Counted from the first letter of the stretch, positions 8,828 through 14,625 are shown. The stretch: 29,228 nucleotides of DNA from a virus (IMGVR_UViG_2778261380_000007:1-29228); one strand, 5' to 3'. The notes: generated from the sequence alone by a model not told the origin. Translations and numbers: made by a program.

Positions 8828-9286
8828 CTATCTCCCGTGATTCAGGAAGTCGATTAGTTCTTCGCGTGTGGCGCTGTAAAACGTCACGTCATCAACGCCT
8901 TTGAAGTATTTCTTGATGGTTCCTACACGCTTAAGGCCAATCATTGCGCAGTACATCTGACCGTGGCGGAATTTGCGTGCAGCGAACGATGTGACGCACT
9001 GAACAGTGGTGTTAGTCAGAATGTATCGCCAGAACGCCAGCCCGATTTCCTTGCTGAAGCCACGAACCTCTGGCAGGTACATGGCGTGGCAATCGAATGT
9101 CAGCGGCTGAATCTCCTGATAGTAAACAATGCCGCCAAACTGACCGTGCACGTTAACCTCAAAGTAACGGCATTCAGGCTTGTAGTCGTATCCATCACCG
9201 TTGTTGCTCCCGGCAATAATGTCAGGGTGATTTCCGACTGCTTCGATCAGGTCGATGTTTCGCGTTGGTTTGAACTGAATCATCAC
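8828..9286 (-). CDS. P22 gp14-like protein
   Basis: 152-aa ORF between tail needle and gp7; start overlaps the tail-needle stop (ATGA). Confidence 0.7.
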
Positions 9287-10236
9287 TGCTCCGCGATTAT
9301 CTTGATGGTTGTGGCAGTAAACGCCGCCCCATTTGACTGGATGGTTAACGCACTGCCATTTGTGGCAAGAAAGCCGTCTTTATCCACGCTGAAGAACGTA
9401 GCTAACAGGATGTTATCGGTTGTTGTCGCCGAGTTGCGACTGCTTACCAGTGTGTCAGGAACAGAGCTGGAAAAGGTTAGCTGCATTGACCTGTTTGCGG
9501 TTCCGCTGGGCCACGTCCCGACGATCGACAGCTTGAAGAACAAGGTTTTGTTCTCGTTGAACACAACCATCTTGTTGTTAACGGTGTCGAAGAATGGTGC
9601 CAACGTGCCGGATGACGGCGTGAGCGTTTTCAGCAGGCTAACAAGGTTGGTCGGCGCTGTCGGGATGGTTACCGATACTCCTGAGTAAACAACCTCTGAT
9701 TTCTTGCGCGTGGTGGCATACTCAAGCGCAGATATTCTTGTTGAGTGATCACCAACTGTGTTTTGTAGTGTCGGAATACTTCCCTCTGCCGCTGTGAGCC
9801 TGGTATCAAGTGCGTCGATATCGGTTGTATTCTGAGTTATTCGCGCATCATGGTTTGCTAACTCAGATTCATTGGCAGCAATTCGCGTCTCGTGATCAGC
9901 CAGCTCTGTTTCGGCAGCCGTAATCCTTGTTTCATGATCTGCAAGAGTGCTTTCCGCTGCTGCAATTCTATGTTCATGATTGATGAGAGTTGCTTCAGCA
10001 GCTTCAATTCTGGATTCATGGTCTGCAAGGGTGACATCCTGCTCATCATTCTTCACCTGTGCATCATAAGCCCCCTTCCCTGCTTCGTTGGCCTTGTTAG
10101 CCACGTTACCAACATCAGTGCCCTGTGCGATAACGTAAAGCAGATACGACTGCGAGAAGATATTGCGTGGAAGAACTGATGTATCGAGCCGCGTAGCCTG
10201 GATGATTACTGGCTCATTGAGATTCGAATCAGCCAT
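9283..10236 (-). CDS. Tail needle (P22 gp26 family) with extended C-terminal knob domain
   Basis: 317-aa ORF. N-terminus [43 protein letters not shown] matches the gp26 N-terminal domain; central repeats ([11 protein letters not shown] / [11 protein letters not shown] / ANHDARI) indicate a trimeric coiled coil; ~130-aa beta-rich C-terminal extension. Confidence 0.85.
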
Positions 10237-11654
10237 TACTCAATCCTTATCTGGCAGCCAGACAGAGTGACAGGTGACTTCGTGATAACGCGCAATTTGA
10301 AGCCAACATTTTTCCTGATGCGCCCGACTCGCTTCCACAAAACGCGTTTGTCGTAAACGAACGGTTCATTCTGCTCAATCATCTGCTCACGTCCGTAATT
10401 GATGCCGTCAGTGGTTGCAGAGAGAAAAAGGCGGTCGGCGTACTGCGCAACGCCAGTTGACGATTCAACCTCAAAGTCAAACACCCTGGCGTTATCCGCT
10501 TTGAACAACGGAGTAAACAGCAGGTGTTCCTGTTGCTTGTCGTACTGGCTGCTAATGTCGAACTGCAATTTCCCGGTCACGGATTCCAGCTTATCTCCGC
10601 ACGTTATCTGATTGCCTTCGTAAATGAAGTCGATAGCGCGGTACACATCGTCATCCAGGCCTGTTTTCAGTACACACCATTGCGGACCATTGGCGCTTGA
10701 AGATGCGTCGTACACCAGTACATGGCGCGGAAGATGGATAATCAGCAACTCATGCGCATCAAATCGCAGCGATTCCATTACACCATCAGCCAGTTCATCA
10801 GCAGTGTAGGAGCGGAGAATTTTCTCAATGCTCGCGCTGGCGATTGGTGATACCTGACCGGAGCCGATGATGTATACAGACGGCGCACCTGTTGCCGGAT
10901 TGCTGATAAACGCATAGGAATCAGCAAACGGCGTTTTGCAGTAAGTTCCGGCAATGCCTTTCTGCACCATTAACGATGGCTGGGCGACATACAAAGCAGC
11001 ACCAACGGTGGTTGCCCCAGTCAGGGAAAAATATTCAATCGTCGATGAACCAAAGCAGACGATGAAGTCTCGCCATGTTCCGATACCGATGATGCCGTCC
11101 GGCTGAGACTCGGCACGATATTGTGCGCTGTAACGGTCAGGATGCGATTCATCTTCAAGGTCAGTGATAAACCATGAATCAGTGCCGTCTTTTGACCACG
11201 CATAACGCCCACGTAAGCGCGTAATGTCGCGGACTGAGCCTAACTCATACTGAGTGAATCCACTGTCTGTAGGCCAGTTTGAGACGGTTTTAACCGTGCC
11301 ATCATAGCGATACTCGACCAGTTGACCATTAACGCCTACAGCCTGAGATGTCCGACCATGCGCCATTGATACGCGACCACTTCCGGCAACATCACCGACT
11401 TCACTTTCTCCTTTGTACAGCTTGCCACCACACACGCGATAAACAGCACTCTGCGCCATGTTGTACTCGACGCCGCGCGATACGCCGTTCACATCAGAAC
11501 GTTTGGCAATGCCCGGGAATGAGCGAAGATATCCGCTGCTGTTCAGGATTTCTTTGGGTGTAGCCAGCATATTCACTGGCAGATAGTCGATATAGTCGGC
11601 GTTTCGGAAGTCTTTTCCGACACCTTTCATAAGCGGAAGTTGCTGAATCGGCAT
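10236..11654 (-). CDS. Tail accessory / head-completion protein, P22 gp10 homolog
   Basis: 472-aa ORF (same length as P22 gp10) in the conserved 4-10-26 order. Confidence 0.85.
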
Positions 11655-12154
11655 TATTTGCTCCCGTTATCGCAAGGTTCCTTTCGGTGGAAGTAATTCC
11701 ACCCGTTCCACTTCGCCAACTGGTTTCCACTGCCAACAGGCATACGGTTTGGATAACCGGACTTACATTTTGCGGCTTTTGCTCTGTCCATTGCAGACAG
11801 TTTGACGAGTCGCTCTTTCCCGTATCTGGCAGTGGTTATAAGTTTTGCAGACGCTTCCAGCGCATAATCTGGAGCAATGCGGCAGGCAAGGTTGAAAATG
11901 ACGGCATTTATAGCGTTATTTGATAAGCCGTGCTCATCGCCCGGATCCGGAGCAACATCTGCATCAGCAAAAATGTAGCCAACGTTGATACCAGGTGACG
12001 CATCACCGCCAAGCCATTCAGCCATCATCATTTCAAGGTCGTTGACGCCGTCTTCCATAGACTGCGGTTCGACATCGGTTAACGTGGCATTTGATGCCAC
12101 ACCGAGCTTACGTAATGCCGCAAGAACTAAATCACCCTTCGTTGTCAGGTTCAT
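11654..12154 (-). CDS. Tail accessory protein, P22 gp4 homolog
   Basis: Start placed at ATG 12152-12154 ([21 protein letters not shown]..., matching the P22 gp4 N-terminus) with an AAGGCGG RBS; the ORF-track start at 12235 adds a probably spurious SQSQSQSQ leader. Confidence 0.8.
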
Positions 12155-12374
12155 CTGCTGCCGCCTTAGGTTTTCGACCAGGCTTTTTACGCTGTTTTTC
12201 TTCTGGCTCTGGCTCTGGCTCTGGCTCTGCAACATCCTTCAAAAGGTCATCAGGATGTGAAAACCAGCCAGCATCCAGATATTCCTGTAGCTCTTCGGCT
12301 TTCACGATTTCAAAGTCGTATCCAACGCCTTTCCATTTCTTCATGTCGCCATGACGAAAGATCATGTGTGTCAT
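12132..12374 (-). CDS. Small acidic hypothetical protein (80 aa) with [10 protein letters not shown] repeat and Lys/Arg-rich tail
   Basis: ATG at 12372-12374 preceded by a GGAG RBS, immediately after the coat terminator; the ORF-track start at 12422 would lie inside the terminator. Coding status uncertain. Confidence 0.45.
12204..12230. repeat. Hexanucleotide tandem repeat (CTGGCT)x4
   Basis: Seen directly at 12204-12227; encodes EPEPEPEP in one - strand frame and SQSQSQSQ in another. Confidence 0.9.
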
Positions 12375-12386
12375 GCTTGTCTCCAG

Positions 12387-12410
12387 ATAAAAAAGGGAGC
12401 CGAAGCTCCC
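12387..12410 (-). terminator. Rho-independent terminator directly downstream of the coat gene
   Basis: On the - strand: GGGAGC-UUCG-GCUCCC followed by UUUUUUAU, 8 nt after the coat stop codon. Confidence 0.8.
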
Positions 12411-12418
12411 TCTGGTTA

Positions 12419-13714
12419 TCACGCGGTCTGGTTAGGCAGACCAACACCAATTGCCTCTGGTCGTACAGCACATGCTGAATACCACACAGCAATACGGCAC
12501 TTACCAGACAGAGTATTGATATCACCCTGCGTTGCGAAGATGCCGTTAACACCAATACCAGGAATGCTGAAGGAAGACGTTTTCATGCCAGCAAACAGTT
12601 CATGGGTTACCGGAATCGGCTGAGACAGCAGGCGGATTGAGTCATCAGCCCAGAACACGTTAGCGGTGGTTGTTGCCACGTTCAGAACGTTTACCGGAGT
12701 GGAATCAGCAAGAGAGGTGTTTACGTTAGCGTAAGCCTTCTCTTCTTTTGTCAGTGACGCGTCATCCAGCGCAATCGGCTTCGGCGTGATTTCGATATGA
12801 GTACCATCGATCACACGAGTGATTGAGAAAGTCGCATCATCAGTCAGCACGTTCTTCGCCATCTGAGACAGGAATTTCACACCAGTGAAGCTGATTTTGT
12901 CGCCGCGCTTAAATCCGGTGGTGGAGGATACGGTCACCGTTGCAACACGGTTATCGACGTTCTCTTTGTTACCATCGGTATCAAGGGTGTATGCCTGCGG
13001 CTTAAACTTCTGCGCACCAGAAACAGTTACACCAGTAGCGGTTGACTTGGTAACTGCCGGAAGTTTCGGTGAGCGAAGAATTTCATCAAAGCCAGCAATC
13101 TGACGCTGAATAGTACCGTTGCGATACGCGTCTTCAGGAACGCGCCCAAAGATGTCACCATCTACCAGGTTGCGGCCTGCTTTGCGGTAATCGTCCGGGT
13201 TCAGGAAGTAACTGATGCCCATATCGCGGTTTAGCTCACGGGAGAACATCAGGCGCTCTGCATCAGACACAAAATCCCAGCCAGACAGGCCAGTAGATGG
13301 ACCAATTGCGCGGGTATCGTGAACAACAAGCGAGCCCATTTCAGTTGCCTGTTTGGCAATCGCTGACTCAATGTTATTCGCCAGTTTTTTGGCGGATGCC
13401 TGGATTCGGCGACGGTAAGAACGCTCATCACGCAGGTCATCTGCACGAAGCTCGAAGAAATCGTTATCCGGATCGCCCATGTTGCATTTCACGGACAGCT
13501 CCAGAATCCCGGTTGCGTTGCCAGTTAAATCCCAGCCAGTCTGAGTTGGCGCTTCCTGCTCAACAGGCATCCACACGGTGTTGCTTGAACGTTGCATGGA
13601 TTCTGCCGGAGGGGTGTATTTTGTCACTTTTGACGCCATTGGCGTCAGGTTCTGGACGGTTTCGATGATTTCATCCAGAGCATACGTGACCAGTTGACCT
13701 TCATTTAATGCCAT
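12419..13714 (-). CDS. Major capsid (coat) protein, P22 gp5 homolog
   Basis: 431-aa ORF; [27 protein letters not shown]...[14 protein letters not shown] is highly similar to P22 coat protein as I recall it. Confidence 0.95.
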
Positions 13715-14625
13715 TATCGAATTCCTTTATTCAGTTGCGCCTTGAGCTTGCGGTATGTCTCTACATCCCCTTTGTTTGCTGCCGCTTCCATCTGCTTTTC
13801 AATCGCAGAGATATTTGCAGCAACAGCATGTCCCTGAATTGGTTCATCAGGTAACGGGGCTTCTGAAACAGGCTTGGCTCGAGGCTTGAGAGTTAAACGT
13901 TCTGACAGTCGAGTGAGTTCAATAAGCGCGGATTGCCCGTCCATCGCCAGCAACTGGCGTGTTTTTTCAGGATTAGCACCAAGGTGATACATGAGAGCGG
14001 CGGATTTCTCCGGGAAGAGGCGCATGATGTCGGCACCGACTGCTGGCGGCACCAGTTGCATGAATGCATCCTCTTTCTCCTGATAGTCAGGGATATTGAG
14101 CTTTTCCGCTGCGTCGTAGTGCTTACGGGCTGCCTCGACGTATTGCGCTGATTGCTGGGTGAACTCCTGAGTTTTGCGACCCTGCTCGGCGACAGCCTGG
14201 CTTCGTGCGTCCATAGCCTTGATCTGCCATTCACTGTTTGCCTGCTGGAAGGCAGCCAGTGCGCGGCTCTGGTCATAGTCGTACTTAGCCAGTGCATCTT
14301 CGGAAAGATAATCGTTAGGGTCTGGTTGTTTTGGTAACTCAGGGTTCACCCGCAGGTGCTCCGGCAACTCTCCACGCTTAACCGCTTCCATCTGCTGCTC
14401 AAGCTCACGCTGGCGTTTGCGTTCGATGCGGCGACGGGCAAATTCAGCATTAGTTGCCGGGTCTTGTTTTGGTTTCTCATCGTCTTTCAGGACAATCTCG
14501 AAGCCTTCTTCCTGACCTGCGTTGTCGTTGGCATTATCGACAACTAAGCCATCAACAGATGCCGCTGCATGATTGCCAGGCAGGGTTAATTCTTCAGAAG
14601 CCTGAATGTCGGTGGTTTGGTCCAT
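13714..14625 (-). CDS. Scaffolding protein, P22 gp8 homolog
   Basis: 303-aa ORF (same length as P22 gp8), charged and helical, between portal and coat. Confidence 0.9.

Follow-up and report, generated by a model that had tools for sequence, protein, structure and literature searches.

An in-frame Glu-Pro microsatellite in an ORF69-type gene at the coat-to-head-completion junction of a P22-like prophage

Introduction

The small late gene that follows the coat gene of phage P22, ORF69, has its closest described relatives in gene 6 of epsilon34 and orf186 of phages L and ST64T (phrog_1175 and phrog_3769), all of which occupy the same slot, with a terminator on their 5' side and an overlap with the start of gp4. 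The group shares an N-terminal module (31-34% identity, with GW..P invariant) and a basic tail of the KPGRKPKA type with an acidic end. According to Villafane et al. (2008, PMC2629481), homologues of epsilon34 gene 6 are of unequal length, with internal deletions in those of P22 and Scho1, and the same paper cites Eppler et al. (1991) for the P22 gene being non-essential under laboratory conditions; our search of the literature on P22 orf69 found nothing on its function. Here we analyse the equivalent junction in IMGVR_UViG_2778261380_000007, a viral stretch of 29,228 nucleotides (nt) referred to below as the window, where an 80-amino-acid (aa) open reading frame (ORF) with an in-frame Glu-Pro microsatellite lies between a terminator-type hairpin behind the coat gene and the start of gp4. 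The window carries the late operon of a P22-like (Lederbergvirus-type) prophage with all of its genes on the minus strand, and Escherichia coli NZ_OZ039045.1 contains a prophage that matches this region at 100% identity.

Within this group the Glu-Pro microsatellite spacer is found in the E. coli lineage but is absent from P22 ORF69 and L orf186, whereas a WDGH domain is present in orf186 and epsilon34 gene 6 but absent from the window allele. The layout recurs in Sf6, where the coat stop is followed by the terminator 't coat', a GC hairpin with a U-tract, then by an SD sequence and gene 6 (hkbT in HK620; phrog_3251), an ORF of about 60 aa that has KRGRK as its basic tail and shares 26 nt with the gp4 homologue. 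Sf6 gp6, which is without the repeat, has GF where the ORF69 family has GW, and its homology to that family was not supported by hhalign (probability 3.8%), the two belonging to different PHROGs; in a paper on Sf6 evolution, all matches to 'gene 6' proved to be gene 61. Sf6 gp6, HK620 hkbT and an unannotated ORF of APSE-1 thus share the slot, a similar layout and phrog_3251. The APSE-1 ORF, of 63 aa, lies at about 710-900 on the plus strand of our APSE-1 locus (AF157835.1) between the coat gene and P27 and matches phrog_3251 at 7e-30; in the record this place is taken by P26, which is annotated on the other strand.

Results

The 80-aa ORF runs on the minus strand from an ATG at 12374 to a TGA at 12134-12132 (12132-12374, stop included), and a Shine-Dalgarno (SD) sequence, GGAG, read from the sequence 6 nt upstream of the ATG (12381-12384), is kept in relatives. 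The product contains 20 Asp and Glu against 13 Lys and Arg residues, has a pI of 4.9 and matches phrog_1175 over its full length (E = 2.9e-37, residues 1-78 on profile positions 1-72 of 72). P22 ORF69 matches the same profile at 4.5e-31, Sf101 gp06 and gp6 of the Proteus phage Brookers also fall within phrog_1175, and a BLASTP comparison of the 80-aa protein with P22 ORF69 gives 31% identity (2e-10). The genomic position agrees with this assignment, the gene lying 3' of a P22-type coat gene and overlapping the start of gp4, which is the same arrangement as in P22, L, Sf101 and Brookers, and the protein displays the family motif G..W-G...V....E...YL..GW..HP together with a basic C-terminal cluster. 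The Prokaryotic Genome Annotation Pipeline (PGAP) calls exactly this 80-aa coding sequence in the identical E. coli prophage. Searches of NCBIfam and PADLOC returned no matches for the 80-aa protein, and Pfam returned only sub-threshold, low-complexity matches to PARP and DUF7302 (E about 0.05). The acidic 80-aa ORF, which the preliminary description of the region had placed behind its own ribosome-binding site immediately after a terminator, is therefore a real and conserved gene of the phrog_1175 family.

Conservation was assessed across 92 loci, made up of the window, 80 loci from IMG/VR and 11 drawn from records of phages and of E. coli. All 92 keep an intact ORF, at lengths of 74 to 102 aa that differ in steps of 2 aa. 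Its first 141 nt contain 22 variable columns, which fall on codon positions 1, 2 and 3 as 6, 0 and 16, and the distinct changes comprise 17 synonymous and 7 non-synonymous substitutions when read in the ORF frame; in the other two frames the ratios are 2:21 and 3:16, the latter with 4 additional stop-creating changes. This codon-position split and the synonymous excess in the ORF frame are a clear signature of purifying selection on the 47 N-terminal residues. The N-terminal 'GW' module as a whole, delimited by alignment and substitution pattern, covers aa 1-48 (12231-12374, minus strand); G36, W37 and P41 are invariant across homologues of about 30% identity, and G9 and K70 are conserved (alignments A1 and A2).

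Directly downstream of this module, Tandem Repeats Finder (TRF) reports an array at 12202-12229 with a period of 6, 4.7 copies and a 100% match, in which the hexanucleotide (GAGCCA)x4, read on the minus strand from 12227 to 12204, encodes EPEPEPEP in frame. Individual loci range from one Glu-Pro unit (L010, 74 aa) to 15 units (L007, 102 aa), always differing by multiples of 6 nt, and the linker spans 4 to 28 aa among protein clusters at 90% identity. The length of the matching region, 391 nt in the window, is 379-415 nt in isolated phages and 373-457 nt among the matches listed of 219 E. coli records, found in 217 of the 5,426 complete genomes covered. Match lengths of 420 and 416 nt, the only two that depart from the 6-nt steps, were considered as possible frameshifts of the ORF and rejected; they reflect a terminator whose U-tract is T5 or T7. 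Unit counts are dominated by EP (422), followed by ES (46), DP (38), EQ (31), EL (12) and ET (11), all single-base variants of GAGCCA. The record of phage APC_JM3.2 flags a 'repeat_region' at this spot, and one E. coli allele (P0001, 93 aa) carries an in-frame tandem duplication of 13 aa at the end of the N-terminal module.

Copy number changes even between loci with identical flanks. Among locus pairs with identical flanks of 2,607 nt, 4 of 9 differ, by one unit, and all three pairs with 1-2 flank differences do so, by 1-3 units, such that 7 of the 12 pairs with no more than two differences in the flank differ in copy number; above about 50 flank differences, copy number is shared in only 11-13% of pairs. 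Copy number is thus almost uncoupled from relatedness, and the array alters much more quickly than point substitutions build up, the behaviour to be expected of replication slippage, which we infer to be the mutational mechanism. An alternative, that the differences arise from assembly or sequencing, is highly improbable. Draft assemblies can indeed miscall short tandem repeats, but these arrays measure just 6-90 nt, short enough for one read to span, the variation is present in complete RefSeq genomes and isolated phages with ORF lengths that differ by exact multiples of 6 nt, and interrupted units (GAGTCA, GAGCAA, GACCCA) are inherited within arrays. As the unit is 6 nt long, a change in repeat number never switches the gene off. 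The locus therefore shares with contingency loci a hypermutable repeat that differs in copy number between close relatives, without their on/off switching by copy change: all 92 alleles are in frame and none of the ORFs is truncated. The earlier expectation that the repeat could vary in number without shifting the frame is fully borne out by this range of 1-15 copies in 6-nt steps.

The gene that follows, gp4, encodes the head-completion (head-tail adaptor) protein of 166 aa (11654-12154, minus strand; Pfam P22_Tail-4, 1.1e-58). Its frame is also open from an ATG at 12235, and translation from there would yield a protein of 193 aa in which the repeat is read as (Ser-Gln)n and tunes the gp4 N terminus, a start that the records of phages Louie, Dewey and IME10 annotate. 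We give this reading almost no weight. The alignment with P22 gp4 begins at M28 of the long ORF, which is the ATG at 12154, with no P22 gp4 homology on its 5' side, and yields a 166-aa protein like that of P22; PGAP uses the same short start in the identical prophage. Moreover, in the L020 allele (cluster P0025, 212 member sequences) ACG replaces the ATG at 12235 and a GAGCTA (Glu-Leu) unit creates an in-frame TAG in the gp4 extension, with the 80-aa frame staying open, and polymorphisms of the N-terminal module read in the extension frame are 2 synonymous versus 21 non-synonymous. The 27-codon 5' extension (12155-12235) is consequently spurious and non-coding, and the repeat lies outside gp4. 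The preliminary description had offered loss of the 80-aa frame alongside a kept long gp4 as the outcome that would refute the small gene; the comparison gave the opposite result, with the 80-aa frame conserved and the long N terminus not. The gp4 overlap that it reported is real but measures only 23 nt (12154-12132), a value that is the same in all 92 loci, whereas the larger overlap of 82 nt or more depends on the spurious ATG at 12235.

Several database records differ at this point. In Louie, Dewey and IME10 (L002, L003 and L006; locus positions 324-461 and 536 onward) gp4 is begun at the upstream ATG and runs through the repeat, and the ORF69-type gene is omitted; the Louie and Dewey records additionally call a 45-aa ORF that spans the coat stop and the hairpin. 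The APC_JM3.2 and Brookers records label gp4 as 'recombinase', and in L020 (821-1432) the gene caller gives a gp4 of 203 aa with an extra match to PF26808 (Phage_P22_gp16), where 166 aa are expected.

The SD sequence of gp4, AAGGCGG (12161-12167, minus strand), is embedded in Lys-Ala codons of the 80-aa ORF tail. A sequence of the form AAGG(C/T)GG precedes the gp4 ATG in P22, L, Sf6, Sf101 and Brookers, in which the slot ORF overlaps the gp4 start by 17-26 nt, and this combination of overlap and embedded SD suggests that translation of gp4 may be coupled to that of the small ORF. Taken to its extreme, the ORF would be a translational ramp only, feeding ribosomes to a weakly initiated gp4 and giving rise to a functionless protein. 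We think this improbable: the amino-acid sequence of the N-terminal module, with its invariant Gly, Trp and Pro, is under strong purifying selection, and module and tail are both retained where a WDGH domain is inserted between them. What speaks for a ramp is that the overlap and the embedded SD recur in all P22-like phages, including Sf6 and APSE-1, whose slot ORF is not demonstrably homologous, and that P22 can dispense with its gene in the laboratory (PMC2629481).

On the 5' side of the small gene, the coat stop codon (TGA, 12421-12419) is followed after 8 nt by the core of an intrinsic-terminator-type hairpin ('t coat'; 12389-12413, minus strand; stem AGAGGGAGC / GCUCCCUUU, cUUCGg tetraloop, U6). 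The core is made of GGGAGC (12410-12405), the loop TTCG (12404-12401), GCTCCC (12400-12395) and a T6 tract (12394-12389), and flanking AGA/UUU pairs lengthen the stem to 9 base pairs, 5 of them GC (12413-12392). An 81-nt context folds at -22.8 kcal/mol (z = -2.24). A GC-rich stem-loop with an immediate U-tract on the transcribed strand is the form of a Rho-independent terminator, and the coat-proximal hairpin is the strongest match of a generic terminator scan of which the total count is not enriched (8 found versus 6.7 +/- 2.7 expected in shuffles); no Rfam family matched anywhere in the window. The stem is intact in all 92 loci, variation being confined to the loop (UUCU, UUUG) or the U-tract, apart from one A-to-G change in the stem that retains a G.U pair. 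Hairpins with other stem sequences occupy the equivalent position in P22, L, Sf6, Sf101 and APSE-1, and one is also present in Brookers: the stem is GGGAGC/GCUCCC in the window and Brookers, GGGGC/GCCCC in L, P22 and Sf6, UGGGGC/GCCCCA in Sf101 and GGGCGC/GUGCCC in APSE-1, and the loops across the P22-like phages examined and APSE-1 are UUCG, UGCG, UUAC or UUAG. Pairing is therefore kept despite sequence change, as for a Rho-independent terminator. The UUCG-capped terminator that had been proposed 8 nt past the coat stop accordingly has canonical anatomy and a conserved position, and a terminator is annotated at this position in the GenBank records of Sf6 ('t coat') and phage L. The U-tract itself is polymorphic in close relatives (L001, L008, L009, L030, L047 and L095), with T4-T7 or a first base of C, G or A, and such polymorphism could modulate termination efficiency.

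The idea that the terminator sets coat stoichiometry, which the preliminary description put forward, is the standard hypothesis and a speculation already made for phage L, where intra-operon terminators were suggested either to terminate partially or to block un-antiterminated transcription (PMC8022706). It is possible, although we are doubtful, that the hairpin is not mainly a late terminator, being read through by the Q/gp23-modified polymerase, and acts instead as a barrier to 3' exonucleases once the mRNA has been processed, or keeps un-antiterminated transcription, spurious or from the prophage state, out of the head-completion, tail and ejection genes. The late operons of lambdoid phages, served by one promoter with antitermination (PMC8022706; established knowledge), are in keeping with this, as is the cUUCGg tetraloop, an unusually stable cap that is typical of protective 3' hairpins; the U-tract of T4-T7 kept in all relatives would be superfluous for a hairpin of pure stability.

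The remainder of the protein is a C-terminal tail (12135-12197, minus strand) with a basic cluster, KKPGRKPK, followed by an acidic end. The core of the cluster reads G-R-K-P rather than the R-G-R-P of an AT-hook, and the distant homologue P0134 has a canonical AT-hook, RRGRPPK, at the same place, so that 'AT-hook-like' is the most that applies to the window protein. In some E. coli prophages a protein of 197-203 aa fills the same slot behind the same hairpin. This long form combines the N-terminal module (34% identity over residues 1-44) with a domain matching Pfam WDGH (PF25311, 1.5e-39), 2 or 5 units of the same EP repeat and 25 C-terminal residues identical to those of the window protein. 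The combination of N-terminal module and WDGH domain also occurs in the Salmonella phages L and ST64T (orf186), epsilon34 and g341c (gene 6), ST104 and BTP1, and P22 ORF69 is a short form. Judging from these alignments, the ORF69 family can be described as an N-terminal module, an optional WDGH domain, an acidic linker and a basic tail (with a KKPGPKPK variant) that has an acidic end, and the published 'internal deletions' would be better stated as presence or absence of the WDGH domain, a restatement that we did not find in the literature; a literature search on 'WDGH' itself yielded nothing relevant. In L011 (396-1007, NZ_CP080255.1) and L012 (396-989, NZ_CM132951.1) the slot gene is given by PGAP only as fragments of a pseudogene ('WDGH domain-containing protein, missing C-terminus'). 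Since a single intact ORF of 203 or 197 aa spans the region, the annotation is probably wrong.

An exhaustive search with the N-terminal module recovered only 22 representatives, including small proteins of 72-79 aa with the same layout, P0134 among them. The module also gave weak, multi-stretch matches to proteins with GIY-YIG/HNH and NUMOD3 domains, at phmmer E-values of 5e-7 to 7e-4 for multi-repeat proteins. These proteins, from metagenomes (P0129-P0142), contain 4-6 tandem modules of about 36 aa with the consensus G..WIN.G...K.IK.EELQ.YLD.GW..G. No Pfam model covers the module of about 36 aa, which could represent a previously undescribed repeat with which homing endonucleases bind DNA. 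We take the resemblance as a lead towards nucleic-acid binding and not as evidence of it. In an AlphaFold2 (AF2) prediction of the window protein, a short beta element and a helix at residues 26-34 reach a predicted local distance difference test score (pLDDT) of about 72-77, only residues ~21-40 are moderately confident, and the C-terminal half is without regular structure.

Upstream of the hairpin lie the coat (major capsid) gene, a P22 gp5 homologue of 431 aa (12419-13714, minus strand; Pfam P22_CoatProtein, 6.3e-166; phrog_283 and phrog_22632), and the scaffold gene (13714-14625, minus strand); gp4 is followed by gp10 (10236-11654, minus strand). Further along, a 317-aa minus-strand ORF (9283-10236) occupies the position of the tail-needle gene gp26 and contains a tandem repeat with a 42-nt period (3 copies, 68% match; window positions 9910-10033).

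Discussion

We consider it probable that the region as a whole represents a conserved coat-to-head-completion junction, composed of a hairpin, an ORF69-type gene with an in-frame microsatellite and an overlap with gp4, and we tentatively propose the following account of how it might work. The hairpin would lower the amount or lifetime of message 3' of the highly expressed procapsid genes, either because some transcripts terminate there or because the coat mRNA is protected at its 3' end. The small gene represents the P22 ORF69 family in the E. coli lineage, with a GW module of about 45 aa, an acidic Glu-Pro spacer and the basic KKPGRKPK tail, and its (GAGCCA)n array expands and contracts, presumably by slippage, in whole dipeptide units with the frame kept. 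Translation of gp4 would be coupled to that of the small gene. As to the protein, our most likely guess is a dispensable late nucleic-acid-binding or adaptor protein, in which a small folded head is joined to a flexible or extended spacer whose variable length is tolerated.

A number of observations weigh against parts of this account. The last 75 nt of the ORF show no clear codon-position bias (5/3/3), and conservation of the tail may partly reflect the overlapping SD and start of gp4 rather than protein function; the constraints on these 75 nt are mixed, since the signals for initiating gp4 translation lie within them. The argument for terminator activity, as for translational coupling, comes from the anatomy of the junction. 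Late transcription in P22-like phages relies on antitermination of the Q/gp23 type, which should leave RNA polymerase largely resistant to terminators. The antitermination objection to intra-operon terminators has also been raised for phage L (PMC8022706). The hhalign comparison of the N-terminal module with the tandem modules, at a probability of 95.4% and an E-value of 1.9e-8, extends over just 20 columns and used modules picked by motif. The AF2 model, built from an alignment of 30 sequences, has a mean pLDDT of 60.6 and a predicted template modelling score of 0.29, and a PDB sequence search with the profile of the N-terminal module found no related structure, its matches to ETS domains and designed TIM barrels being due to chance.

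A more ambitious version, which we think unlikely, would hold that ORF69-family proteins are small, late nucleic-acid-binding adaptors that join a GW module related to DNA-binding repeats of homing endonucleases to an AT-hook-like tail. In P22-like phages of E. coli, the hypermutable in-frame microsatellite would then set the length of a rigid Glu-Pro spacer and be a contingency locus that is under selection but does not switch. If this were true, spacer length could match or evade a host factor or a defence sensor; otherwise the linker would be drifting neutrally.

The gene, the terminator and the gp4 overlap were already known and annotated, and the junction is ordinary for P22-like late operons. 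What the window adds to this known orphan gene is a new class of alleles specific to one lineage, and we did not find described in the literature either the polymorphism of the Glu-Pro microsatellite and its rate, or the shared module of EP repeat and tail and the resemblance of the N-terminal module to modules of homing endonucleases. No new mechanism is revealed, and the main outputs are corrections of annotation and a description of the family. The true gene pair is the 80-aa ORF and a gp4 of 166 aa, and the Louie, Dewey and IME10 records are wrong on both, while PGAP breaks the long form with the WDGH domain, although intact, into pseudogene pieces. The orphan ORF69 family thereby gains a clearer description, and an unusually fast in-frame microsatellite is documented in a phage structural operon.

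Individual features of the junction can be compared with better known systems. The classic analogue of the stoichiometry idea is T-phi of phage T7, a strong terminator directly after the major capsid gene 10 at which partial read-through feeds the tail genes; T7, however, transcribes with an RNA polymerase of its own and does without antitermination of the Q type. Perhaps the closest resemblance to the spacer is found in the proline-rich region of TonB, (Glu-Pro)n-(Lys-Pro)m, which forms an extended, rigid rod similar to polyproline II. TonB and the ORF69-type protein share an acidic EP run followed by a Lys/Pro-rich basic segment, without homology outside this low-complexity stretch, and the ORF69-type protein differs in being cytoplasmic, phage-encoded and polymorphic in EP number. 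The neuO gene of the P22-like prophage CUS-3 contains phase-variable heptanucleotide repeats (King et al. 2007, cited in PMC2629481) and is likewise a case of an E. coli prophage of the P22 type with a short, intragenic tandem repeat that changes copy number rapidly. However, the 7-nt unit of neuO switches the reading frame on and off, whereas the 6-nt unit of (GAGCCA)n alters only the length of the spacer.

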